Origin: an uncultured Dictyoglomota bacterium
Lineage (GTDB): Bacteria > Dictyoglomota > Dictyoglomia > Dictyoglomales > Dictyoglomaceae
Direction of reading: 5' to 3'
Assembly: GCA_964654465.1 (NCBI GenBank)
Contig: CAZZIO010000024.1
Coordinates: forward strand, 1-38,113
DNA length: 38,113 nucleotides
Positions 3,928 through 21,529 of this stretch are shown here, one piece after another. How positions within the stretch are numbered: position 1 is the first letter of the stretch; each line of letters begins with the position of its first letter. The notes under the pieces were generated by a model. The model saw only the letters and a list, made by a program, of their open reading frames with translations. It searched no databases and was not told the origin of the DNA. Position numbers and translations under genes: made by a program.

Positions 3928-6321
3928 ATGAAGAGAACAATAATTTTTGTCACTTTTATTATCATATTACTTAACATATCTCATCCTCAAAGCTTAGATC
4001 TTAGAGGAAACTTAAACTTAAATCTTTATTACTCTTACTTTTTAGGAGAAACTTCTCTTAATTACCTTTCTTCAGATATAAAAGAGGGATTATACCTCTC
4101 ACAAAACTCTCAATTTTCATTAAACTATCTCTTACCAAATCTATCTCTATCCTTTAATTATCTCTCTCAACCTGTAGAAAAAATAAACCTTTCCATAGAC
4201 ACCTATAAGGTTCTTCTATATTTTAGTAATAATTTATCTTTATCCCTATCTCCTCTAACCCTTCACAATAAAATCCTTAATGGAATATATGTGAACTATA
4301 AAAACGATAAGTCAAATATACTTTTTGTAGTATCCCAGATTGAGAGCAAAAAGAAGATAGCTAAAATATATGGCAATAATTCAGAGGGTCCCTATTTCAT
4401 AGGGGACTTCTTTCTTGTACCAAATAAAGAAAGGGTCTTTTTAAATGGAAAATCCTTAGAAAGAGATACAGATTATATTATAGACTATACCTATGGGATT
4501 TTATATTTTAGCTTCCCTATATCCCAAGATGATGAATTACTTATAGAATATGAGGCCTCAGGATTTCAAGAGATATATAATCTATATGGATTTAGTCTAT
4601 CTTATAGTCTTATTGGCATGAATTTTATAAATCTACAAGATACAAATACTAAAACTAATAGAAGATTTTTAGAAGGGAATATTATATTTAAAAAGAATTT
4701 CCAATCCTTAGAAATAAGAAGAGCTTTTTCCTTCTTAGACGAGATTTATTCTGGATATGCAGATTATATAAAATATTCGTTAACACTACCAATATTGAAT
4801 ATAAACTTTGAATACCTATTTGGAGATAAAAATTATCCATATATACCTCAAGTATTAGGAAACCTAAATCTTACTTCAGGAGAAAAAATCTATTCTTTAA
4901 ACTTAAAATTAAATCCCTCTTTCATAGATCTTCTTTTTAACTTCTCTAAAGGAAAAGATGGAGAAAAAATTATAAGTAATGCAAAATGGAATATATATTC
5001 TTCTAATATCCTTTTATCTTATAAAAAGGAAAAGGACAATATTACCAATGGAATATTTTTTACATATACAAAAGCCTTTTTAAATCTTGGATATCAAAAA
5101 GAAATCTCCCAAAACTATATAGCAAGTACCTATTCTTACAGTTTTCAACCAAAAACGGACAACACCCAGCTTTATATATCCGTATCTAAGAAAAATATAA
5201 ATTCATCTGGCTCTATTTTAGAAGAAAACCAGCAAAATGCAGGAATCACCATATCAAACAGATCATGGGAAATAGGTTTTGGAGAAATCTACAAAGAAAA
5301 TATAAATTTAAATCCCTCCTCTCCAATAAATATTACCCAAAATTTTATCACCGATGGATACAATTCAATTTTTGAGCTCAATTATGTACCTGTTCAAGAT
5401 ATCTCTATTTATATAAACAATGTATATGTGGAAAATAATGGGACCTTTACATATTATCTACCAGACGGTACTTATGAAACCTATACCGTAAGCTATACCA
5501 TAGAGGAAAATCTATTAAATATATTATTTGAGGATGAAAATGGGAAAAATCCTCCACCCTCTGGACTCACCATAACTGTAAATTATAAAGCCTATATTCC
5601 TTTCAAGAGTATTACAAAAACTGATACTTTTAGCCTAAAGCTAAAATTCCAAAACCTTTCTCTCTCTTTGTCTTATCAAAAAATCCTAAAAGATCTAAAG
5701 GAAGATAAAGTACTTTCACTTTCCACTTACGGCATGATTCTTCCCTCCCTTTGGATAAATATTACAGGAAATACTTACCTTGGGAAAATAAAAAATAATA
5801 TTTCTCTAAATGCTACTTATTACTTCAATCCTTCCTCTTTATACTTTGGCCTCTATTACAATGAAATAGAAGGTAGAAGAATTTTATCCTCAAATATTAC
5901 TTTGAAACTATACCTTGCACCTTACGAAGCCAATTTAGGCATTGATTACTACAGAAATGACTATTCTAATAACTACTTCCAAAATATAGGTTATAATCTA
6001 AACCTAAAAAGAAAATTTAACACATGGGAATTAAAGGGGAGTATATCCCAAAACTGGAAATCAGCATCCTATAACCTTGGCCTTTATAGAACAAATCTCC
6101 AAAGTCTATCTATATCCTTTAATTATTTCGAAGGAAAGAATGAATTTTCACTTTCCCATGAAGGTTATAGTAATTCTGCCAATAAATATACTCTATCCTT
6201 TTCCTATTCTCCTTCTAAGCTAAAAGATAATATTTTTTACATAAAATATGTATATAATATATTAAATGACCAATTTCTTTCTATTTATCAGATAGGTGTA
6301 AAAGGTACTATAAATTTTTAA
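3928..6321 (+). CDS. Putative outer-membrane beta-barrel protein
   Basis: Signal peptide; Tyr/Asn/Ser-rich alternating amphipathic strands; ends YQIGVKGTINF (C-terminal Phe, beta-signal-like). Confidence 0.65.
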   Translation: MKRTIIFVTFIIILLNISHPQSLDLRGNLNLNLYYSYFLGETSLNYLSSDIKEGLYLSQNSQFSLNYLLPNLSLSFNYLSQPVEKINLSIDTYKVLLYFSNNLSLSLSPLTLHNKILNGIYVNYKNDKSNILFVVSQIESKKKIAKIYGNNSEGPYFIGDFFLVPNKERVFLNGKSLERDTDYIIDYTYGILYFSFPISQDDELLIEYEASGFQEIYNLYGFSLSYSLIGMNFINLQDTNTKTNRRFLEGNIIFKKNFQSLEIRRAFSFLDEIYSGYADYIKYSLTLPILNINFEYLFGDKNYPYIPQVLGNLNLTSGEKIYSLNLKLNPSFIDLLFNFSKGKDGEKIISNAKWNIYSSNILLSYKKEKDNITNGIFFTYTKAFLNLGYQKEISQNYIASTYSYSFQPKTDNTQLYISVSKKNINSSGSILEENQQNAGITISNRSWEIGFGEIYKENINLNPSSPINITQNFITDGYNSIFELNYVPVQDISIYINNVYVENNGTFTYYLPDGTYETYTVSYTIEENLLNILFEDENGKNPPPSGLTITVNYKAYIPFKSITKTDTFSLKLKFQNLSLSLSYQKILKDLKEDKVLSLSTYGMILPSLWINITGNTYLGKIKNNISLNATYYFNPSSLYFGLYYNEIEGRRILSSNITLKLYLAPYEANLGIDYYRNDYSNNYFQNIGYNLNLKRKFNTWELKGSISQNWKSASYNLGLYRTNLQSLSISFNYFEGKNEFSLSHEGYSNSANKYTLSFSYSPSKLKDNIFYIKYVYNILNDQFLSIYQIGVKGTINF

Positions 6322-6325
6322 AAAT

Positions 6326-6354
6326 TTGACATACATTTTTGTAAGTAGTATTAT
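6326..6354 (+). promoter_or_regulatory. Sigma70 promoter upstream of metG
   Basis: TTGACA (6326-6331), 17 nt spacer, TATTAT (6349-6354); SD GAAAGGAG before the TTG start. Confidence 0.75.
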
Positions 6355-6392
6355 TATCAAGGAATTTATAGGAATGAAAGGAGCGAAAGACC

Positions 6393-8273
6393 TTGAAAAA
6401 GAATAAATTCTATATAACAACTCCCATATATTATTCAAATTCTGAACCCCATATTGGGACTGTATATACTACGATCGTTGCGGATACCTTTGCCCGATTT
6501 TATAGGCTAAAAGATTATGATGTCTTTTTCTTAACCGGCCTTGATGAGCATGGCCAAAAATTAGCAAGAACCGCCCAAGAAAAAGGCTATTCTCCTCAAG
6601 AATATGTAGATATGATGGCCCAGAAGTTTTTAGATACATGGAAAAAAATTGGAATAACAAATGATGATTTTATAAGAACAACCCAGAAAAGACATGAAGA
6701 AGTAGTACAAAAGGTATTTCAAAAGCTATATGACAATGGGTATCTATACAAAGGTACCTATGCAGGATGGTATTGCACCCCCTGTGAAACATTCTATCAA
6801 AAAGAGGAACTCCATGATGGTAACTGTCCCAATTGTGGAAGACCTGTGGAATTTTTAGAAGAAGAAACCTACTATTTCAAATTATCCGAGTTTGGTCCCG
6901 CTCTCTTAAAATACATTGAGGAACATCCAGAATTTGTGTACCCCGAGTCAAGGAAAAATGAAGTAATAAGCTTTATAAAAAGTGGATTGAAAGATATAAG
7001 TGCTACAAGAACTACGGTAAAATGGGGAATACCTGTACCCTTTGATCCAAAGCATACAGTATATGTATGGTTTGATGCGCTGGTAAATTATATAAGTGCC
7101 CTTGGATATTTAAGTGATGATGATACAAAATTTAGAAGATATTGGCCTGCAGATGTACATCTTATAGGCAAAGATATTTTAAGATTCCATGCTATCATAT
7201 GGCCTGCCATCCTCATGGCTCTAAATATTCCATTGCCAAAAACTGTCCTTGCTCATGGATTCTGGACCATAAAGGGTGGAAAAATATCAAAATCAAAAGG
7301 AAACAAAGTAGATCCTCATGAATTAATTAATATTTATGGGGTAGATGCCTTAAGATACTTCTTACTTAGAGAAGTCCCCTTAGGATTAGATGGGGAATAT
7401 AGTGATGAAGCTTTCCACAGAAGATATACTTCAGATCTTGCCAACGATCTTGGAAATCTTTTAAATAGGGTGCTTACAGTGGCAGAAAAATATAGTGAAG
7501 GGAAAGTGCCAAACCCATCAGAAATGAAAGAAGAAGATAAAGCCTTATTGGAAAAAACAGAAGAAATGGCAAAAAGAGTAGAAGATGAAATGGAAAAATT
7601 CAACCCCTCATCTGCCCTTAGTTGTATTTGGGAAGTTATTCAAGATGCCAATAGATACATAGATCAACAAGCTCCTTGGAACTTAACATCCGATAAAGAA
7701 AGATTAAATACCGTAATCTATACCCTTTTAGAAACTTTGAGAAGAATATCTATTCTCCTTTATGCCTTTATACCTGACTCAGCTGTTAAAATACAAGAGC
7801 AGTTAGGATATCAAGATCCACAATTCTCTTGGGACCTTATTAAGGATGTTAAGATCCCGGTAGGGCAGAAACTAAATAAAGGTAAAATCTTATTCCCAAG
7901 AGTAGAAAGAAAGGAAAAGGAAGAGAAAGAAGAAGTTAAAGAAGAGCCAAAGATCCCTATTGAGGAATTCAAAAAGATAGATCTCAGAGTAGCCAAAGTA
8001 TTATCAGCAAGAAAGGTTGAAAATAGCGATAAATTGCTTCTTTTGGAGATTGATTTAGGGGACGAAAAAAGACAAATAGTAGCAGGAATTGCAGAACATT
8101 ACAAACCTGAAGATATGGTAGGAAGGGAAATCATTGTGGTGTATAATCTACAGCCGGCCAAAATAAGAGGATACGAATCTCAAGGTATGCTTCTTGCAGC
8201 CAAGGATTCGAAGGGTCGCCTTGCCATATTGACTCCTGAAAAGGAGGTAGACCCAGGATCGAAGGTGAGTTAA
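6393..8273 (+). CDS. metG: Methionyl-tRNA synthetase with C-terminal tRNA-binding OB domain
   Basis: FYITTPIYY, HIGT (HIGH-like), TGLDEHGQK, CxxC...CxxC knuckle, YVWFDAL, KISKS (KMSKS-like), C-terminal DLRVAKV...SQGMLLA. Confidence 0.97.
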   Translation: MKKNKFYITTPIYYSNSEPHIGTVYTTIVADTFARFYRLKDYDVFFLTGLDEHGQKLARTAQEKGYSPQEYVDMMAQKFLDTWKKIGITNDDFIRTTQKRHEEVVQKVFQKLYDNGYLYKGTYAGWYCTPCETFYQKEELHDGNCPNCGRPVEFLEEETYYFKLSEFGPALLKYIEEHPEFVYPESRKNEVISFIKSGLKDISATRTTVKWGIPVPFDPKHTVYVWFDALVNYISALGYLSDDDTKFRRYWPADVHLIGKDILRFHAIIWPAILMALNIPLPKTVLAHGFWTIKGGKISKSKGNKVDPHELINIYGVDALRYFLLREVPLGLDGEYSDEAFHRRYTSDLANDLGNLLNRVLTVAEKYSEGKVPNPSEMKEEDKALLEKTEEMAKRVEDEMEKFNPSSALSCIWEVIQDANRYIDQQAPWNLTSDKERLNTVIYTLLETLRRISILLYAFIPDSAVKIQEQLGYQDPQFSWDLIKDVKIPVGQKLNKGKILFPRVERKEKEEKEEVKEEPKIPIEEFKKIDLRVAKVLSARKVENSDKLLLLEIDLGDEKRQIVAGIAEHYKPEDMVGREIIVVYNLQPAKIRGYESQGMLLAAKDSKGRLAILTPEKEVDPGSKVS

Positions 8274-8274
8274 G

Positions 8275-9825
8275 ATGCCATTAGCATTATATAGAAAATA
8301 TAGGCCTCAAACCTTTGAAGAAGTTGTAGGCCAAGAACATATAGTAATAACATTACAAAACAGTCTTAAGTACAACCATATAGGTCATGCCTACCTCTTT
8401 GCAGGGCCAAGAGGTACAGGAAAGACCACTGTTGCAAGAATCTTAGCAAAATCCCTTAATTGTGCAGAAGGTCCGACACCAACCCCATGTTTAAAGTGTG
8501 CCTCTTGTATGGAAATTTCAGAAGGAAGAAGCATAGATGTAATTGAGATAGATGCTGCCTCTAATCGTGGAATAGATGAGATAAGGGATATCAGAGAGAA
8601 AGCAAGACTCTTACCTGTAAGGGATAGATATAAGGTATATATCATAGACGAAGTCCACATGTTAACAAATGAAGCCTTTAATGCCCTATTAAAGATATTG
8701 GAAGAGCCTCCAGATCACGTAGTATTTATCATGGCAACCACTGAGCCTCAAAAGATACCTTTAACTATTCTTTCCCGATGTCAAAGATTTGACTTTAGAA
8801 GATTAACAAGGGATGAGATAGTTAAACAATTGGCAAAAATTGCAGAGAAAGAAGGGGCTAAAATAACAGAAGGAGCATTAAAACTCATTGCCTTACAAGC
8901 TCAAGGCTCCTTAAGAGATTCCATTAGTCTTCTTGAACAGCTCTTGGTATATGGAGATCAAGAGATCAATGAAGAACTTGCAAGAAACCTTCTTGGTCTT
9001 CCCACCTATGAATTTACTTATACCTTTGCAAAGGCCCTTGGAGAATATAACTTAGCAGAAGGTTACAGTCTTCTTCAACAGATATTTCAGATGGGTAAAA
9101 ACCCACAACAATTTGCAAGGGATCTTTTACGGCATTTTAGAAATTTACTTCTTCTTAAGGCAGATCCAAGGGTTGGAAATATTCTCTCCCTTACTCAGGA
9201 AGAATATGACGAACTTATAGAGGAAACGAAACTATATACCATAAAAAGATTACAAGAAATAATTGATCAGCTTCTTATCTTAGAAAATAGACTTAGAGAC
9301 CTTACCAACGCCCCCTTAGTTATGGAAATGCTTCTAATTCCTCTCTTCATAAAACCAGAAGGTGGAGAAGTAATTTTAGAAGCACCATTAGAGAAAGAAG
9401 AAAAGAAGGTAGAAGTTAAAAAGCAAGAACCAGTAAAAGAAGAAAAGAAATCAGAAGAAAAAGGTATAGATATAGAGGTTGTCAAGGATAAATGGACAAC
9501 TGTATTAGAAAGAGTAAAGAAGAAAAAAGTATCCTTAGAAGCCATGCTTAGAGAGGCAAGAATTGTAGGAATTGATGAGGAAGGAAGATTAGTTCTTGGC
9601 CTTCCCAAGACATTATCATTCCTTAAAGAGAGATTAGAAGAAAGACCAAATAGAAGTGTAGTAGAAGAAAAAATAAGAGAGGTTTATGGGGTACAGATTC
9701 CTGTAAAATTTATTACCATGGAAGATGATCTAATTTTAGACAATCCCAAAATTTCCAGTAAGAAAGAGGAGAACCTTTCTACTGAGGAGATAAGAAACTT
9801 CTTTAAGGGAAAAACCTTAGAATAG
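8275..9825 (+). CDS. dnaX: DNA polymerase III subunit gamma/tau
   Basis: LYRKYRPQTF, GPRGTGKTT, EIDAASN, IIDEVHML, SRCQ. Confidence 0.97.
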   Translation: MPLALYRKYRPQTFEEVVGQEHIVITLQNSLKYNHIGHAYLFAGPRGTGKTTVARILAKSLNCAEGPTPTPCLKCASCMEISEGRSIDVIEIDAASNRGIDEIRDIREKARLLPVRDRYKVYIIDEVHMLTNEAFNALLKILEEPPDHVVFIMATTEPQKIPLTILSRCQRFDFRRLTRDEIVKQLAKIAEKEGAKITEGALKLIALQAQGSLRDSISLLEQLLVYGDQEINEELARNLLGLPTYEFTYTFAKALGEYNLAEGYSLLQQIFQMGKNPQQFARDLLRHFRNLLLLKADPRVGNILSLTQEEYDELIEETKLYTIKRLQEIIDQLLILENRLRDLTNAPLVMEMLLIPLFIKPEGGEVILEAPLEKEEKKVEVKKQEPVKEEKKSEEKGIDIEVVKDKWTTVLERVKKKKVSLEAMLREARIVGIDEEGRLVLGLPKTLSFLKERLEERPNRSVVEEKIREVYGVQIPVKFITMEDDLILDNPKISSKKEENLSTEEIRNFFKGKTLE

Positions 9826-9835
9826 GAGGGATAAA

Positions 9836-10153
9836 GTGAAAGGAAATCCATTTGAAGCCATGAAACAACTTAAGAAGATACAAGAAAAAATGGCCAAAAT
9901 TGATCAAGAACTTGAACAGACCTTAGTTGAAGGTACAGCAGGTGGTGGAGTAGTAAAAATAGTAATGACTGCGAAAGAGGAAGTAAAAGAAGTAAAAATA
10001 GATCCCGAAGTAGTTAATAAAGAGGAGGTAGATGTATTGGAGGATCTCATCTCAGCTGCCTTAAGAGATGCCCTTACAAAGGCAAAAGAAAAGGCAGCTG
10101 AAAAAATGGGAAGTCTCACTGATGGACTTCCTTTTCCTCCTGGACTTTTCTAA
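9836..10153 (+). CDS. ebfC: YbaB/EbfC nucleoid-associated protein
   Basis: GTAGGGVVKI...IDP...LEDLI motif; conserved position between dnaX and recR. Confidence 0.93.
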   Translation: MKGNPFEAMKQLKKIQEKMAKIDQELEQTLVEGTAGGGVVKIVMTAKEEVKEVKIDPEVVNKEEVDVLEDLISAALRDALTKAKEKAAEKMGSLTDGLPFPPGLF

Positions 10154-10156
10154 AAT

Positions 10157-10765
10157 ATGCATGAAAAAAGCTTATTTGAACAGCTCATTGATGAGCTAAA
10201 AAAGATACCTGGTATTGGGCCTAAGTCAGCTCAAAGGATAGCCTTTTACCTTATAAAACAACCCCAAGAGAATGTAGAGCATTTAGCAAACACCATCTTA
10301 AGGGTTAAAAAACAAACAAAATATTGTTCTATATGTTATAATCTCACCGAAAAGGATCCATGTGAAATATGCTCTAATCCAGATAGAGAGCAATCTATTA
10401 TCTGTGTAGTGGCAGATCCAAAAGACGTATGGGCTATAGAAAAGACATCACATTTTGAGGGAGTTTACCATGTCCTTGGAGGACTTATATCTCCCCTTGA
10501 TGGTGTATTTCCAGAAGATTTAAGAATAAATGAACTAATAGAAAAGGTTAAAAAGGGAAATATAGAGGAAGTAATACTAGCTACTGACTCTACCCCAGAA
10601 GGAGAAGCAACTGCCCTTTATATAGCTCGTCTTTTAATCCCTTATAAAATAAAAGTTACTCGTCTTGCCCATGGACTTCCTGCAGGAACAGAGCTTGATT
10701 TTGCTGATGAAATTACCTTAATCCATGCTATAGATGGAAGACAGGAACTGAAAATAAATTTTTAA
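10157..10765 (+). CDS. recR: Recombination mediator RecR
   Basis: PGIGPKSAQRIAF, C4 zinc finger, YHVLGG, Toprim EGEATALYI, TRLAHGLP. Confidence 0.97.
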   Translation: MHEKSLFEQLIDELKKIPGIGPKSAQRIAFYLIKQPQENVEHLANTILRVKKQTKYCSICYNLTEKDPCEICSNPDREQSIICVVADPKDVWAIEKTSHFEGVYHVLGGLISPLDGVFPEDLRINELIEKVKKGNIEEVILATDSTPEGEATALYIARLLIPYKIKVTRLAHGLPAGTELDFADEITLIHAIDGRQELKINF

Positions 10766-10782
10766 AAAAAGGAGGTTGAAGT

Positions 10783-11355
10783 ATGAAGGATATGTTAGAA
10801 GTTCGCTGGCATGCTAGAGCAGGGCAAGGAGCAAAGACCGCTTCCTATCTCCTTGCTGAAACAGCCATGGAGGCTGGAAAATTTATACAAGCCTTCCCTG
10901 AATATGGTCCAGAAAGAACCGGAGCACCTATGAAGGCCTATACAAGGATAAGTGATAAACCTATAAGAATACACAGCCAAGTATACAATCCAGACGTAGT
11001 GGTAGTTCTTGATAAAAGTCTAATAGGAAAAGTAAATGTATTAGAAGGGCTACCTTCTGATGGGATCATCATTGTAAATACCACTCAAGATCCTAAGGAG
11101 GTTAGAAAAGATCTTGGAATCTCAGATAGGAAAATCTATACCGTAGATGCTACTGGTATAGCTCTTCAAACTATTGGAAGGCCAATACCAAATACCCCAA
11201 TGCTTGGAGCCCTTATAAGAGTAGTTCCAATAATTTCCTTAGAAGATGTACTCGATCAATTGAAAAAGAAATTTGAAGGGAAATTTAAACCCGAGGTTAT
11301 CGAGGGTAACCTTCAAGCTATAAAAAGAGCTTACGAGGAGGTAAAAGGAGAATGA
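10783..11355 (+). CDS. porC: Pyruvate/2-oxoacid:ferredoxin oxidoreductase gamma subunit
   Basis: EVRWHARAGQGAKTA, AFPEYGPERTGAP, PNTPMLGA. Confidence 0.92.
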   Translation: MKDMLEVRWHARAGQGAKTASYLLAETAMEAGKFIQAFPEYGPERTGAPMKAYTRISDKPIRIHSQVYNPDVVVVLDKSLIGKVNVLEGLPSDGIIIVNTTQDPKEVRKDLGISDRKIYTVDATGIALQTIGRPIPNTPMLGALIRVVPIISLEDVLDQLKKKFEGKFKPEVIEGNLQAIKRAYEEVKGE

Positions 11356-11630
11356 AACTTCCAGGATGGAAAGAATTAGTTAATTCGGGTCCAATCCTTC
11401 CAGCATCTACATCTAAAGAGTATAAAACTGGAGATTGGAGAACCTTTAAACCAGAAATAGATTACAATAAATGTACTACATGTATGTTTTGCTGGCTCTT
11501 CTGCCCAGATTCTGCAGTAAAATTTGATGGGCAAAAAGTATACATTGATTATGATTATTGTAAAGGCTGTGGAGTCTGTGCAGCAGAATGCCCTGTAAAA
11601 GCCATAACCATGAAAGAAGAAGAAAAGTAA
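11352..11630 (+). CDS. porD: Pyruvate:ferredoxin oxidoreductase delta subunit (2x[4Fe-4S])
   Basis: KTGDWRTFKP, CxxCxxCxxxCP, YCKGCGVCAAECP. Confidence 0.93.
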   Translation: MKLPGWKELVNSGPILPASTSKEYKTGDWRTFKPEIDYNKCTTCMFCWLFCPDSAVKFDGQKVYIDYDYCKGCGVCAAECPVKAITMKEEEK

Positions 11631-11643
11631 AGGAGGGAAGAAG

Positions 11644-12831
11644 ATGAAAACCCAAGTTAGAAAAATTGCTATAGAGGGAAATGAGGCAGCAGCATTAGCT
11701 TTCAAACAAATAAATCCTGACGTAGTAGCTGCTTATCCTATAACTCCATCTACTGAGGTGGTACAAAAATTTTCTGAATATGTGGCAAACGGAGAAGTAG
11801 ATACCGAATTTGTACCTGTGGAAAGCGAACACAGTGCTATGAGTGCCTGTGTCGGAGCATCTGCTGCTGGAGCAAGAGTTATGACATCTACAGCATCTCA
11901 GGGTTTAGCCCTCATGTGGGAGATGCTTTATATAGCGGCATCCTTAAGGCTACCTATCATAATGACAGTTGCAAACAGAGCTTTATCTGCTCCTATTAAC
12001 ATTCATGGAGATCACAGCGATGCTATGGGAGCAAGAGATTCCGGATGGATACAAATCTTCTCTGAAAATGTACAAGAAATATATGATAATATATTCCAAG
12101 CAGTAAAGATTGCAGAAAATGAAAATGTAAGATTACCTGTAATGGTAGGATATGATGGTTTTATCACAAGTCATTCTGTAGAAACCATTGAGCTTCTTGA
12201 TGATGAGGTGGTTAGAAATTTTGTTGGAAAATATAAACCAAAATATACTCTACTTGACGTGGATAATCCTATCTCTGTTGGACCCCTTGCCCTTACCGAC
12301 TCCTACTTTGAGTTTAAAGTAGCCCAAGCACATGCTATTGAAAATTCTCTCCCCATTATCAAAAAGGTAGGAAAGGAATATGGAGATCTTACAGGAAGAT
12401 ACTATGATGTGATTGAAAAATATAAGATGGATGGAGCTGAATATGTTATAGTAGCTATGAGTTCTACAGTAGGTACAGCAAGAGAAGTGGTAGATAGCCT
12501 TAGAGAAAAAGGGCTTCCTGTAGGACTCCTTAAAATAAGAGTTTTTAGGCCATTCCCCACCGAGGACATTGTCAATGCATTAAAGGATGTAAAAGTAGTA
12601 GGAATCCTTGATAGAAGCATGGTACCAGGATCCTTTGGAGGACCTCTCTATCATGAGATCACATCTGCCATGTATCATTTCGATAAGAGACCAATAGCCC
12701 AAGCCTATGTATATGGTCTTGGTGGAAGAGACATCACCACAAACCATATAGAAAAGGTATTTGAAGAACTTATGGAGATAGGTAAGAAGGGTAAGCCAAA
12801 TCCTCTTACCTACATCGGAGTAAGAGAATAG
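11644..12831 (+). CDS. porA: Pyruvate:ferredoxin oxidoreductase alpha subunit
   Basis: AAYPITPST, VESEHSAMS, TASQGL, NRALSAPINIHGDHSD. Confidence 0.93.
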   Translation: MKTQVRKIAIEGNEAAALAFKQINPDVVAAYPITPSTEVVQKFSEYVANGEVDTEFVPVESEHSAMSACVGASAAGARVMTSTASQGLALMWEMLYIAASLRLPIIMTVANRALSAPINIHGDHSDAMGARDSGWIQIFSENVQEIYDNIFQAVKIAENENVRLPVMVGYDGFITSHSVETIELLDDEVVRNFVGKYKPKYTLLDVDNPISVGPLALTDSYFEFKVAQAHAIENSLPIIKKVGKEYGDLTGRYYDVIEKYKMDGAEYVIVAMSSTVGTAREVVDSLREKGLPVGLLKIRVFRPFPTEDIVNALKDVKVVGILDRSMVPGSFGGPLYHEITSAMYHFDKRPIAQAYVYGLGGRDITTNHIEKVFEELMEIGKKGKPNPLTYIGVRE

Positions 12832-12843
12832 GAGGTGCTAAAA

Positions 12844-13779
12844 ATGGCAATAAATCTCAGAGAATTAGCATTAAAAGAAGAGAGATTAGTAAGTGGACAT
12901 AGATTATGTGCAGGTTGTGGTGCCAGCATTATTGTAAGAATGATATTAAATGCCATAGACGAACCAGTGGTAGTAGCAAACGCTACAGGATGTCTTGAAG
13001 TAGCAACCACCATATTCCCTTTCACAGCATGGAATGTACCATGGATTCATAGCGCCTTTGAAAATGCAGCTGCTACCATATCAGGAGTTGAGGCAGCTTA
13101 TAGAGCTTTAAAGAAAAAGGGAGAAATAAATAGAGAGATAAGATTTTTAAGCTTCTCAGGTGATGGTGGTACCTATGATATTGGTCTCCAAGCCCTTTCT
13201 GGCGCCATTGAAAGAGGCCACAGGGCTGTATATATATGCTACAACAATGAAGCTTACATGAATACAGGTATACAAAGATCTGGTGCAACCCCAAGAGGAG
13301 CCTTTACCACAACCTCTCCAGCTGGAAGAGTTATTCCTGGTAAACCTCAAAAGAGAAAAAATCTTACTGAAATGATGGTAGCTAATGGTGCAAGATATGT
13401 GGCACAAGCATCCCCAAGCCACTGGAGAGATCTGATGGAAAAAGTAAGAAAGGCTGTAAATACAGATGGTCCTGCCTTCTTAAACATATACTCCACATGT
13501 CCCAGAGGATGGAGAACACCAGATAATTCTGCTATAAGCATATCAAGACTTGCAGTAGAAACTGGAGCTTGGTTCCTTTATGAAGTAGAAGATGGAAAAT
13601 ACAAAATAAATTACAAACCCGCAAAAGGATTTAAACCCATTGAAGAATATATCAAGGTACAAGGAAGATTTGCCCATCTCTTAAAGCCAGAAAACGCCCA
13701 CATATTAGAAGATCTTAAAAAGGATTTAGAAGAAGAATGGAATAGACTCCTCAGACTTGAGGAAGTTACAAATAAATAG
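12844..13779 (+). CDS. porB: Pyruvate:ferredoxin oxidoreductase beta subunit (TPP-binding)
   Basis: GHRLCAGCG, ATGCLEV, GDGGTYDIG, NEAYMNTG, CPRGW. ATG 12844 chosen from GGAGG spacing; the ORF track starts at 12835. Confidence 0.93.
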   Translation: MAINLRELALKEERLVSGHRLCAGCGASIIVRMILNAIDEPVVVANATGCLEVATTIFPFTAWNVPWIHSAFENAAATISGVEAAYRALKKKGEINREIRFLSFSGDGGTYDIGLQALSGAIERGHRAVYICYNNEAYMNTGIQRSGATPRGAFTTTSPAGRVIPGKPQKRKNLTEMMVANGARYVAQASPSHWRDLMEKVRKAVNTDGPAFLNIYSTCPRGWRTPDNSAISISRLAVETGAWFLYEVEDGKYKINYKPAKGFKPIEEYIKVQGRFAHLLKPENAHILEDLKKDLEEEWNRLLRLEEVTNK

Positions 13780-13781
13780 TC

Positions 13782-14651
13782 ATGGATAAGAATAGGCACC
13801 TCTCCTATAGGAGAGGTGCCATCCCCATAAAAAAGAATATAGATTATAAACTGGGAGTACATCTATTCCGAGGCGATAGAGCTATTTTGGAAGATATAAA
13901 ACTATTAAAGATAAATACCGCTCAAATATTTTCTGGAAATCCAAGGAGCTACAGACCTAATAACGAAAAACTTCCCACCTTTCCTTTTTCAAGCATATTC
14001 ATCCATGCACCCTACGTGGTTAACATTGCATCCTCCGATGAAAAAGTATGGAATCTATCTATAAAAAAGGTAAAAGAAGAATTAAAAATTGCCGAAGAAA
14101 TGGAATGGGAAGGAGTAGTTATACATGCAGGAAGCAGTAAAAAAATGGGAAAAGACGTAGCTAAAAAAAATTTCTTAAAAGCCTTAGAAAAAATCTTTGA
14201 AACTGACGGAGTTAAAAGGGCAAAACTTATTATGGAAAATAGTGCAGGAGAAGGAGACGGATGGGGGTCTACAATAGAAGATTTAATCTCTGTATATGAA
14301 GAATTTCCTGATATCTATTTCTGTCTTGATACATGTCATCTTTTTGCAGCTGGATATAATCTCAAAAATGAGAGAGTATGTAGAGAAACCTTTTATAATT
14401 TCTTTGAAAAGATACCTCAAGAAAAATTAGTTTTAATCCATATAAATGATTCCCATTTTCCCCTTGGATCAAAAAGGGACCAGCATGCCCATGTAGGAAA
14501 AGGTGCCATGGGAGTTACAGCCTTCCAAAATCTATTAAAAATTGAAACCATAAGAAGAATTCCTTTAATACTTGAAACTCCTAAGGACTCTCCCATGGCA
14601 GACCTCTATAATTTACATATAATAAGAAAAATACTTGAAAATTCCGACTAA
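13782..14651 (+). CDS. nfo: Endonuclease IV (AP endonuclease family 2); start uncertain
   Basis: [43 protein letters not shown] metal-ligand motifs. Confidence 0.9.
13795..13820. repeat. Perfect 26-bp palindrome GGCACCTCTCCTATAGGAGAGGTGCC just after porB
   Basis: 13-bp arms are exact reverse complements; no U-tract follows on the + strand. Confidence 0.85.
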
Positions 14652-19230: not shown

Positions 19231-19268
19231 TAAACAAAATAAAACTCTTAAAAGAGGTTTTGAGATTT

Positions 19269-20288
19269 ATGGGCAGTGTAAAGGATTTAATAATTTTGGA
19301 GAATCCATCCGAAAATTCCCTTGGTAGAGGTAGATTCATCTTTTCTGACAGATATTCTGTATTTGATTATGGAGAAATGCCAGACCTCATAGAAGATAAG
19401 GGTAAAGCTATATGTATAGTCACATCTTTCTTCTTTGAAAAATTAGAAAATCTGGGAATTAAAACCCATTATATAGGAGTAGTAGAAGAGGATAAAGTAA
19501 AATCCCTTTCTGAGCTAAAAAATACATCTAACATTCTTGAATTTAAAATGGTAAGAGTAGTGAAACCTGAATTAAAAGATAATATTTATGACTATTCTAT
19601 TTTCCAAAGCCTTAAAAATAATTTTCTCATTCCTTTAGAGGTCATATATAGAAACTCCCTTCCAGAAGGTTCTTCTGTATTTAGAAGATTAAAGGATGGA
19701 AGTTTAAAAATGGAAGATCTTGGACTTAACAAGATACCAAGACCAGGAGAAAAACTTGAAAAACCAATAGTAGACTTTTCCACAAAATTAGAGGTAAATG
19801 ATAGATATCTATCAAAAGAAGAAGCTCAAAAAATAAGTGGCCTCACTATGGAAGAATTTGAAAAACTTATAAATATTACCCTTTTTATAGATGACCTTAT
19901 AACTCATGAGGCAGAAAAAATAAGTTTAATAAACGAGGATGGAAAATTTGAATATGCTTTTGATGCAGAGAGAAATTTCATGGTAGTAGATGCCTTAGGA
20001 ACTCTCGACGAATGCAGATTTACCTATAATGGAATACCTATAAGTAAGGAAATAGCAAGAATATATTACAGAAAAACTGAATGGTATAAGGAAATAGAAG
20101 AAGCAAAAAAGAAAGACAGATTTAATTGGAAAAATATGGTAGGATCCCCACCAAATCTTCCAAAAGAACTTAAAGACCTTATATCCTCTATATACAAAGC
20201 TTATGCTAACGAAATAACCCAAAGAGAATGGTTTGATGCTCCTCCTATGAAAGATCTTTTAAATCGACTCCAAGAGCTTCTTCAATAG
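19269..20288 (+). CDS. purC: SAICAR synthetase, long (~340 aa) form
   Basis: GSVKD, FSDRYSVFD, IPLEVIYRN, FSTKLE..D, DGKFEYA, VDALGTLDECRF, SKE. ATG 19269 preferred over TTG 19260 from AGAGG spacing. Confidence 0.9.
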   Translation: MGSVKDLIILENPSENSLGRGRFIFSDRYSVFDYGEMPDLIEDKGKAICIVTSFFFEKLENLGIKTHYIGVVEEDKVKSLSELKNTSNILEFKMVRVVKPELKDNIYDYSIFQSLKNNFLIPLEVIYRNSLPEGSSVFRRLKDGSLKMEDLGLNKIPRPGEKLEKPIVDFSTKLEVNDRYLSKEEAQKISGLTMEEFEKLINITLFIDDLITHEAEKISLINEDGKFEYAFDAERNFMVVDALGTLDECRFTYNGIPISKEIARIYYRKTEWYKEIEEAKKKDRFNWKNMVGSPPNLPKELKDLISSIYKAYANEITQREWFDAPPMKDLLNRLQELLQ

Positions 20289-20371
20289 ATCTTTAATAAA
20301 CAATTTTAAATGTTTGTAAACTTTATAACATACCCATTTTTTAAAGAGATCCATCTTTTATTGTCCTAACT

Positions 20372-20630
20372 TTATCCACAACTGTGGATAACTTTGTGGA
20401 TAGGTTGTGGATAACTCTGTGGATAACTTTATAAATCTGTGGATAACTTTGTGGATAGAATATTAATTGTTGATTATGTGGAAAACTTTGGAAAACTTAT
20501 CCACAGCCAAAAAACATACATTTCTTAACTCCTTATAACTTATCCACAATATCCACACCCCTAACTACTACAACAAGGTTTTTTATTTTATAAAACACCC
20601 TTTGTATTTGTTACAGTAGGCTGTGGATAA
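20372..20630. other. DnaA-box cluster with unwinding element; probable oriC
   Basis: Perfect TTATCCACA at 20372, 20497, 20540; perfect TGTGGATAA at 20383, 20406, 20418, 20438, 20622; one-mismatch boxes at 20395, 20450, 20477, 20549; trio-like TAACTACTACAACAA at 20562-20576 followed by an AT-rich tract; intergenic. Confidence 0.85.
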
Positions 20631-20644
20631 AATCACGATGATGT

Positions 20645-20676
20645 AAAAAAGCCCCCCTATTTAGGGGGCTTTCTTT
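20645..20676. terminator. Intrinsic terminator; U6 tail on the minus strand, probably bidirectional
   Basis: AAAGCCCCC (20648-20656), 7-nt loop, GGGGGCTTT (20664-20672); A6 on the left, TTTCTTT on the right. Confidence 0.8.
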
Positions 20677-20711
20677 GAGAAAGGAAATTCTGACTGGGCT
20701 TTGTTTCTTTC
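20645..20711 (-). ncRNA. Candidate ~67-nt small RNA of unknown family
   Basis: Bounded by a near-consensus promoter (20746-20718) and a terminator; no AUG in the predicted transcript. Confidence 0.5.
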
Positions 20712-20717
20712 GAAAAA

Positions 20718-20746
20718 ATTATAACTTATTTTTTGAATTTATGCAA
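20718..20746 (-). promoter_or_regulatory. Sigma70 promoter pointing toward the DnaA-box cluster
   Basis: Minus strand TTGCAT (20746-20741), 17 nt spacer, TATAAT (20723-20718). Confidence 0.65.
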
Positions 20747-20868
20747 TAATATAAAAAAATTTTAATACTACTATAAGTAACACGAGTTATTTTAATAGAT
20801 CATATAAAAGAATAAAATTTTCATATCTATAAAAAAGTTTCAGAGAAAAACGATTTATTTTAAAAGTA

Positions 20869-20877
20869 TGATATAAT
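20869..20877 (+). promoter_or_regulatory. Extended -10 promoter element of the MgtC-family gene
   Basis: TGaTATAAT, separated from the ATG by 7 nt; no SD. Confidence 0.55.
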
Positions 20878-20884
20878 TTTTAAT

Positions 20885-21529
20885 ATGATCCAGGAATTTG
20901 AGATTATAAAAAGACTTATTTTTTCTTTAATACTATCTGGCATAATAGGATGGGAAAGGGAAAAGGAAGAGAAACCAGCTGGATTTAGAACACATATACT
21001 GGTTTCTCTGGGAGCTACTCTTTTTATGATTGTTTCAGCTTATGCTTTTCCAAATACTGATCCAACTCGTATAGCTGCTCAGGTGGTTACTGGTATAGGT
21101 TTTATAGGTGCAGGTACTATTTTAAGAAATGAACATTCTGTAAAAGGTTTAACAACAGCAGCAAGTATATGGGCTGTCTCAGGTATAGGTATGGCTGTTG
21201 GTGCAGGACTTTATTTTCCTGCTTTTTTTACTACTTTGTTTATATTAGCTGTTCTCATATTAGCAACAAAACTTGAGAAAGTATTTATAGGTTCCCATAG
21301 AGATTTAATATTAAAATGTAAAATAGAAGATAAGCCAGGGGTTATAGGAGAAATTGGAACTATTCTTGGGGAACTTAAGGTTAATATAAAACAAATAGGT
21401 TTAAACTCTATAAATGAAAATATAGCAGAATTAAATTTAATTTTGAGATTGCCATCTAAGATTAAAATGGAAGAGATTGTAGAAAAGCTTTCAAAATTAT
21501 CCTCAGTAAAAGAAATAGATATCATTTAG
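20885..21529 (+). CDS. MgtC/SapB family membrane protein with C-terminal ACT domain
   Basis: IGWERE..KPAGFRTH, DPTRIAAQVVTGIGFIGAG, GLTTAASIW; ACT-like DKPGVIGEIGTILG. Confidence 0.92.
   Translation: MIQEFEIIKRLIFSLILSGIIGWEREKEEKPAGFRTHILVSLGATLFMIVSAYAFPNTDPTRIAAQVVTGIGFIGAGTILRNEHSVKGLTTAASIWAVSGIGMAVGAGLYFPAFFTTLFILAVLILATKLEKVFIGSHRDLILKCKIEDKPGVIGEIGTILGELKVNIKQIGLNSINENIAELNLILRLPSKIKMEEIVEKLSKLSSVKEIDII

Follow-up and report, generated by a model that had tools for sequence, protein, structure and literature searches.

A probable Dictyoglomaceae chromosomal origin with a predicted BUS-type opening module and a mirror-image second repeat array

The intergenic DNA at 20289–20884 of the window (the whole stretch of DNA analysed, 38,113 nucleotides) is, judging from its sequence, very probably the chromosomal oriC of a Dictyoglomaceae bacterium, and the segment 20540–20630 within it would be its DNA-opening module of the basal unwinding system (BUS) type. 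As an origin opener the module is ordinary, since its ortholog has already been predicted for a sister species. The family, however, shows three linked departures from BUS: repeat units with a central T on the predicted DnaA-bound strand, Val in place of Asn187 in DnaA, and a mirror-image second array on the far side of the A/T-rich DNA.

The features concerned are as follows (window coordinates; invariant columns refer to nine family genomes).

19260–20288, plus strand: SAICAR-synthetase-like gene, left neighbour (PF01259, E 3e-23); same in G001, G003 and G005
20289–20884: intergenic gap around the module, 596 bp
20372–20505, both strands: main DnaA-box array, nine boxes; 80 of 135 columns invariant
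20540–20548, plus strand: upstream tandem DnaA box TTATCCACA, perfect; 8 of 9 columns invariant
20549–20557, plus strand: downstream tandem box ATATCCACA, one mismatch, abutting the upstream box; 7 of 9 columns invariant
20558–20561: G+C spacer CCCC, 4 nt; invariant only at the last C
20562–20576, minus strand (putative DnaA-bound strand): left array, five in-phase units TAA CTA CTA CAA CAA; 10 of 15 columns invariant
20577–20578: GG between the left array and the A/T tract
20577–20601: inter-array stretch, including the 17-nt pure A/T tract TTTTTTATTTTATAAAA at 20579–20595; presumed first-melting DNA
20602–20619, plus strand: right array, six in-phase units 5'-TTG TAT TTG TTA CAG TAG-3', the box-adjacent TAG being canonical
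20622–20630, minus strand: inverted DnaA box, a perfect TTATCCACA directed toward the tandem boxes, with the A/T tract in between; 7 of 9 columns invariant
20646–20676 (stem 20653–20668), both strands: terminator-like G+C hairpin at the right edge of the origin, with T-runs on both strands
20885–21529, plus strand: MgtC family gene with ACT domain, right neighbour (PF02308, E 3e-43); same in G001, G003 and G005

The box cluster and its place in the genome

The window is an entire contig of its source genome, G000 (1.91 Mb, 31.6% G+C, 72 contigs), and has 32 DnaA boxes (zero or one mismatch), as compared to 12.45 ± 3.71 in 100 shuffles (maximum 23). Twelve of these boxes, eight of them perfect, are packed into the roughly 260 bp of 20372–20630. 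In a genome-wide scan that included the dnaA contig, this locus was the richest 400-bp stretch with its 12 boxes, the runner-up having 3; perfect boxes number 42 across the whole genome. The boxes of the main array start at 20372 (plus), 20383 (minus), 20395 (minus, one mismatch), 20406 (minus), 20418 (minus), 20438 (minus), 20450 (minus, one mismatch), 20477 (minus, one mismatch) and 20497 (plus), and include five successive minus-strand boxes at 11–12 bp spacing. TCCACA-N3-TCCACA occurs twice in the genome, and this locus is the only one where YWA CTA CWA CWA comes within 16 nt of a preceding box core.

GC skew inside the window is about -0.2 to the left of the origin and +0.2 to +0.3 to its right. 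Two relatives of the same genus, G001 and G003, have complete genomes, in contrast to the 72 contigs of G000, and in both of them the minus-to-plus skew switch coincides with the box cluster and not with dnaA. In G001, where the cluster lies at 276.9 kb and dnaA at position 381 (~277 kb apart), the sampled 20-kb skew stays below zero from 1.25 Mb, going round the chromosome, through to the 257–277 kb sample (-0.03), and is positive from the 277–297 kb sample (+0.16) on. G003 has its cluster at 1.6–2.0 kb and dnaA at 1.663 Mb (~299 kb apart); here the sampled 20-kb values are positive between 1 bp and 1.0 Mb and negative between 1.1 and 1.8 Mb. A DNA search recovered the homologous origin region in 8 of 10 family relatives; in the remaining two, which are 86% and 72% complete, the region was unmatched and the search hit only an unrelated 27-nt stretch.

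An earlier note on this DNA had argued for an origin rather than a titration cluster. The uniqueness of the dense cluster, together with the skew switch at the homologous clusters of G001 and G003, argues for the same choice, and the recovery of the region in most relatives supports it. It is therefore highly unlikely that the locus acts in DnaA titration or regulation (like datA or DARS), or as a promoter region under DnaA control, with the true origin elsewhere, for example beside dnaA. Such a reading could draw on the position of dnaA, which sits on a different contig of G000 from the box cluster, as origins often, albeit not always, adjoin this gene; the separate contig is unusual for an origin but not disqualifying. 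Against it stand the box density of at most three per 400 bp everywhere else in the genome, the dnaA contig included, and the skew switch away from dnaA in the two complete relatives. A promoter or regulatory reading of the locus was rejected, the promoter scan giving 2 sites against 4.7 expected. Titration sites are not known to contain trio arrays or an A/T tract between inward-facing boxes, which also counts against the titration reading.

The origins of genera g1 and g2 are flanked by the SAICAR-synthetase-like and MgtC genes, and neither gene lies within 1.5 kb of the origin in five g3 genomes (L005, L007–L010); the g3 origin core is kept although the neighbouring genes differ. Further to the left of the origin, at 3928–14651, eight large plus-strand ORFs lie in a row, pointing toward the origin, head-on to a leftward fork. 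Between 6 and 14 kb the local GC skew is positive, inside an otherwise negative replichore.

Anatomy and conservation of the two halves

The earlier note had described 20540–20595 as tandem boxes, a C-run, five trinucleotides, GG and an A/T-rich tract, and this description is exact, with every element in its place. On the minus strand the left array reads 3'-ATT GAT GAT GTT GTT-5'. Its canonical trios are the two CTA units; the other three, TAA and both CAA, deviate by a central T instead of A on the predicted DnaA-bound strand.

All nine family origins share one layout, kept in phase: a pair of boxes in direct contact, then 4 nt of G+C-rich spacer, five YWA units and A/T-rich DNA. The nine genomes are kin, such that counts over them overstate independence. 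The five units have 10 of 15 columns invariant with a pairwise identity of 0.87, as compared to 1 of 34 (0.43) in the spacer before the boxes and 2 of 37 (0.41) in the A/T stretch. First and third bases of the left units are fixed family-wide, and the middle base toggles between T and A only. Read 5' to 3' on the bound strand over the nine genomes, the left array consists of 24 TAG, 17 TTG, 3 TAA and 1 TTA; unit 2 is always TAG, and TTG is found at unit 4 in 6/9 and at unit 5 in 8/9. The G+C spacer occurs as GCCC, GTCC, GCTC, ACAC or CCCC among the relatives. A named Dictyoglomaceae MAG locus (L087) has the same module as G008, which, along with the published Dictyoglomus row that matches G001 (see below), identifies the family as Dictyoglomaceae. 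The earlier note had named loss of the motif with retention of the boxes as the outcome that would speak against it, and alignment of the orthologous origins revealed the reverse, with an array largely invariant beside drifting spacers. Its view of the CAA units as degenerate trios is also reasonable, given that these units are phase-locked and keep bases 1 and 3 across the family.

The inter-array stretch is 24–36 nt long and A/T-rich in 9/9 genomes, yet its sequence is unconserved. The window contains 21 pure A/T runs of at least 17 nt, so the 17-nt tract is unremarkable by itself. It was ruled out as the least stable DNA, several 25-mers at 20718–20877 being less stable; it ranks 7th among non-overlapping intergenic 25-mers and 2nd inside the box-bounded core. 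The tract matters because its position is conserved, not because of its composition.

Boxes bracket the A/T tract on both sides in 9/9 genomes (20540–20557 and 20622–20630 in the window), which makes the arrangement a bilateral one. The inverted box lies 63–75 nt from the second box of the tandem pair in 9/9 family origins, and the right array begins exactly 2 nt from it in every one of them. At this 2-nt spacer, four of the six units in the window fit YWA, with 4–6 of 6 per genome and 47/54 over the nine genomes; out-of-register frames give 0–1 YWA units, and a spacer of 5, which is the same frame shifted by one unit, gives 3–5. Only 0.02–0.3% of background 18-mers match the observed YWA counts. 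The box-adjacent unit of the right array is canonical (TAG, TAA or AAA) in 9/9, and the sixth unit is TTG or TTA in 9/9. Both arrays thus share a polarity, with canonical TAG/TAA next to the box and TTG/TTA distal to it.

A pattern scan that left the middle bases of units 1, 3 and 4 free found the same layout in at least 120 species of many phyla. CAA is rare among the 120 matches listed, with 2, 4 and 2 occurrences at units 1, 3 and 4, the family's own MAG included. An inverted box 30–140 nt downstream accompanies 14 of the 120 modules listed, and a clear mirror array was seen among them in the Dictyoglomaceae MAG only, two others that were flagged being marginal best-of-17-spacer matches. 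Five actinobacterial loci (L081, L095, L097, L108 and L137) have an inverted box at a near-constant 65–67 nt downstream of the tandem boxes, with no mirror repeat array in any of the five. The accessible parts of the open-access literature searched gave no description of paired inward-facing or mirror-image trio arrays.

The published BUS rule, related systems and the DnaA substitution

The basal unwinding system of B. subtilis incC reportedly goes back to work by Richardson in 2016 (in Nature) and 2019, the trios being described in the paper of 2016. As given in the accessible part of Pelliciari 2021, the BUS rule comprises a box with at most two mismatches, an optional second box with at most four, a spacer of at most 16 nt (13 being the commonest) and an unbroken run of three or more trios whose central base on the bound strand is adenine (3'-NAN-5'), three also being the stated minimum in B. 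subtilis. In the window, TTATCCACA at 20540–20548 has no mismatch, ATATCCACA abuts it directly with one, and the spacer is 13 nt, namely the 9-nt second box plus CCCC. The polarity also agrees, with 5'-CTA-3' lying 3' of TTATCCACA and the published rows having AATAGGTGT and then GAT. An A/T-rich element lies beyond the trios here (the 17-nt run) and in 9/9 genomes. The window copy falls short at the trios themselves, of which only two consecutive canonical ones are present. Scored with our re-implemented script, and not with the authors' program, the module passes the rule in five of the nine origins (G001, G005, G006, G007 and G010) and fails in four (G000, G003, G008 and G009), and in G005 the left and right halves both satisfy it. 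Three consecutive central adenines as a rule would therefore overlook real orthologous modules, here in 4/9 origins of one family.

For Dictyoglomus turgidum DSM 6724 (DoriC ORI92730237), the accessible part of the supplement of Pelliciari 2021 (NAR) gives a predicted BUS of AATAGGTGT / TACAGGTGT / CAGG / GATGATGAT with a spacer of 13 and three trios. This row is the exact complement of the G001 module, which aligns column for column with the window and has the same flanking genes; thus, the orthologous element is already a published prediction. Unit 1 is CTA in D. turgidum and TAA here, which leaves the window with its two consecutive canonical trios. The D. turgidum row ends after three trios, and the conserved CAA CAA, the inverted box and the right array are unrecorded in it. 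A search of the open-access literature on Dictyoglomus oriC and DnaA found nothing on this origin. The published BUS geometry, the conserved array and the orthologous module in the published BUS table support the earlier note in its reading of the locus as a probable unwinding module.

The module and the B. subtilis incC BUS have in common a tandem box pair, a short G+C spacer, trinucleotide repeats on the 5'-tail strand with A/T-rich DNA beyond them, and a closely related DnaA (E 1e-159; cryo-EM structure 8BTG, Pelliciari 2023). Unlike this origin, which lies ~280–300 kb from dnaA in relatives, the B. subtilis BUS is one-sided and located between dnaA and dnaN. According to the accessible text of PMC10721633, the B. 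subtilis trios all have a central A read by Asn187, whereas distal units here have a central T and DnaA has Val. B. subtilis DnaD, according to the accessible text of PMC10201434, reads the complementary strand, whereas here there is no DnaD-family match and a mirror-image array lies on the other side.

The family origin also resembles two other systems. One of them, the oriC of Thermotoga maritima, was reportedly treated by Ozaki in 2006. Like the origin described here, it belongs to a thermophile, lies far from dnaA and has an oppositely oriented box; DnaA bound to its boxes needs the TAG repeats in order to bind ssDNA, and flanking A/T-rich DNA aids melting (Lu et al. 2023, JBC, PMC10316083, accessible part). 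Cutting the three TAG repeats to two abolishes ssDNA binding (PMC10316083). In the accessible part of that paper, the T. maritima box is divergent (12-mer or 9-mer), and TAG repeats, three without interruption, lie on just one side, whereas the family origin has E. coli consensus boxes and two arrays of mixed TAG/TTG units. The bilateral oriC of Thermoanaerobacter tengcongensis (Pei 2007, as cited in the accessible part of PMC13643167) likewise has boxes on both sides of an A/T-rich melting region, but here the right side consists of a single box with its own phase-locked trinucleotide array.

Despite the overall similarity, with an alignment ungapped across the trio-reading stretch, the G000 DnaA differs from B. 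subtilis DnaA (8BTG) at one of the residues that capture trios. E183, I190, I193, R202, K222, E223 and E228 (B. subtilis numbering) are kept, and N187 is changed to V (Val179 in G000) and N196 to D. Thus, among the trio-capturing residues Asn187, Ile190, Ile193, Arg202 and Glu228, four of the five are kept and Asn187 is the exception. Val occupies this position in 11/11 family genomes, as compared to Asn in 14, Ser in 3, Gln in 1 and Val in 1 of 19 outgroup genomes. In the accessible text of PMC10721633, B. subtilis DnaA captures bases 1 and 2 of each trio, the essential Asn187 forms a bond with the amine of the middle adenine, central A-to-T changes in trios 1–3 impair initiation, and the trio-capturing residues are not conserved universally. 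An open-access literature search for DnaA-trio and Asn187 yielded the 2023 cryo-EM paper only. Judged from these sequences, Val at the Asn187 position would fit the central-T distal units of Dictyoglomaceae.

The sole non-family module with several CAA units among the matches listed, CAA CTA CTA CAA CAA, is from a Nitrospinaceae MAG, whose DnaA also has Val at this position, and the lone outgroup Val belongs to the same group. Of the 29 DnaA matches obtained from 31 searched relatives of this MAG (L261–L288, L245), 22 have Val and 7 have Ile at the Asn187 position. Seven modules were located in the group, with in-phase CAA in 5/7 and pure CTA in 2/7. This clade may have taken a path similar to that of Dictyoglomaceae, with a Val or Ile DnaA and CAA units; the link between Val187 and central T is seen in these two clades only. 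Some Nitrospinaceae-group modules that adjoin dnaA mix CTA and CAA, as in CTA CAA CAA CTA. A firm link is opposed by the two pure-CTA modules of this clade and by the non-family genomes with a single CAA unit (n=5), which have Asn in 3, Thr in 1 and Ser in 1. CTA-only control genomes have Asn in 9/9, a count of little weight because these genomes were chosen by their repeats and the background is already 14/19 Asn. As an unbiased control, 18 non-Val outgroup dnaA loci gave only 4 modules, too few for counting. A search for BUS modules in five outgroup genomes with a non-Asn DnaA was set aside, as the tandem-box pattern (one mismatch) returned mostly noise and a clear module in G021 only.

Possible modes of opening and the DNA beside the module

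By analogy with the B. subtilis BUS, ATP-DnaA on the tandem boxes at 20540–20557 would extend as an oligomer over the 4-nt G+C spacer and continue onto the minus strand of the five units at 20562–20576; with this strand held by DnaA, the A/T tract at 20579–20595 would melt. The whole series of binding and melting steps at the module is an inference from that analogy. It is less certain that the inverted box at 20622–20630 acts likewise from the other side, on the plus strand of the six units at 20602–20619. If it does, two DnaA filaments, each on its own strand, would converge on the A/T tract and open it, and the box-distal central-T units (5'-TTG/TTA-3' on the bound strand) would be read by a Val187-type DnaA. 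We put forward this two-sided BUS with a relaxed trio, in which inward-facing boxes nucleate two filaments, as a tentative reading that falls short of an even chance. The observations themselves are the anatomy, the uniqueness in the genome, the in-phase conservation, the substitution in DnaA and, in relatives, the location at the skew switch.

A classical one-sided BUS could account for much of the same anatomy and is a serious, albeit likewise tentative, contender. In this case opening would depend on the box-proximal canonical trios alone, the distal CAA units and right array would be tolerated or compositional stretches of the melting region that DnaA does not contact specifically, and the inverted box would be an auxiliary box of a bilateral origin; boxes flanking the unwinding element on both sides are indeed a named architecture (PMC13643167, accessible part). 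In the accessible text of PMC10201434, changing the distal CTA CTA of B. subtilis to CAA CAA keeps wild-type-like DnaA strand separation in vitro and impairs DnaD binding only, from which the simpler reading is that distal units matter little. Trios 1–3 are likewise the essential ones in B. subtilis (PMC10721633, accessible part). However, bases 1 and 3 of all five left units are invariant in nine genomes while the neighbouring spacers drift, the right array holds one frame and its fixed 2-nt spacer in 9/9 genomes though its units differ, and the window has two canonical trios per side where B. subtilis and T. maritima need three. The G000 genome encodes DciA and has no match to the DnaD/DnaB_2 family, so the second strand could not be engaged here in the way known from B. 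subtilis. For a one-sided BUS, this would mean that the pressure keeping T in the complementary strand in B. subtilis is absent. Alternatively, the distal TTG/TTA units and the right array may be recognised by something other than DnaA, either a DciA-helicase complex or an unknown ssDNA-binding origin protein, which would then be positioned on the two strands about the melted A/T tract. This seems improbable, although G000 has DciA instead of DnaD and central-T units dominate away from the boxes in both arrays. Both arrays are continuous, in frame with the canonical trios and start at fixed distances from the boxes, as expected of one oligomer growing from the box, and we know of no sequence-specific DNA motif for DciA. 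A precedent for a second factor is found in B. subtilis, where DnaD reads a motif interleaved with the trios (PMC10201434, accessible part).

What could make the family of wider interest is its natural variation: the base named the specificity determinant in the 2023 cryo-EM work is the one at which the trio code is relaxed here, the reading residue has changed as well, and the module is duplicated in mirror image at the melting site. The two-sided reading, if true, would mean DnaD-independent engagement of both strands, allowing two helicases to be loaded, in a DciA-type bacterium. If confirmed, the module would offer a thermostable test system for how DnaA picks its single-strand motif, and for how the second strand is engaged without DnaD and two helicases are loaded.

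The hairpin at the right edge of the origin is one of 3 terminator-like sites found by a terminator scan, as compared to 0.2 expected. Its stem varies on both sides among G000, G001, G003 and G005, as judged by eye from the alignment, and the hairpin is absent in the origins of genus g3. It looks like a bidirectional terminator and might shield the origin from transcription. An RNA element at 19900–21200 was rejected, since an Rfam scan (E ≤ 1) gave only hits centred on the hairpin, each of them below threshold (at best 28.5 bits, the cut-off being 57). The 27-nt stretch at 20673–20699 recurs at 93–96% identity elsewhere in G000 (contig C8) and in G001–G004. The other copies lie in apparent coding sequence with third-position wobble, so the copy in the window is probably a gene-end remnant and not a part of the origin.
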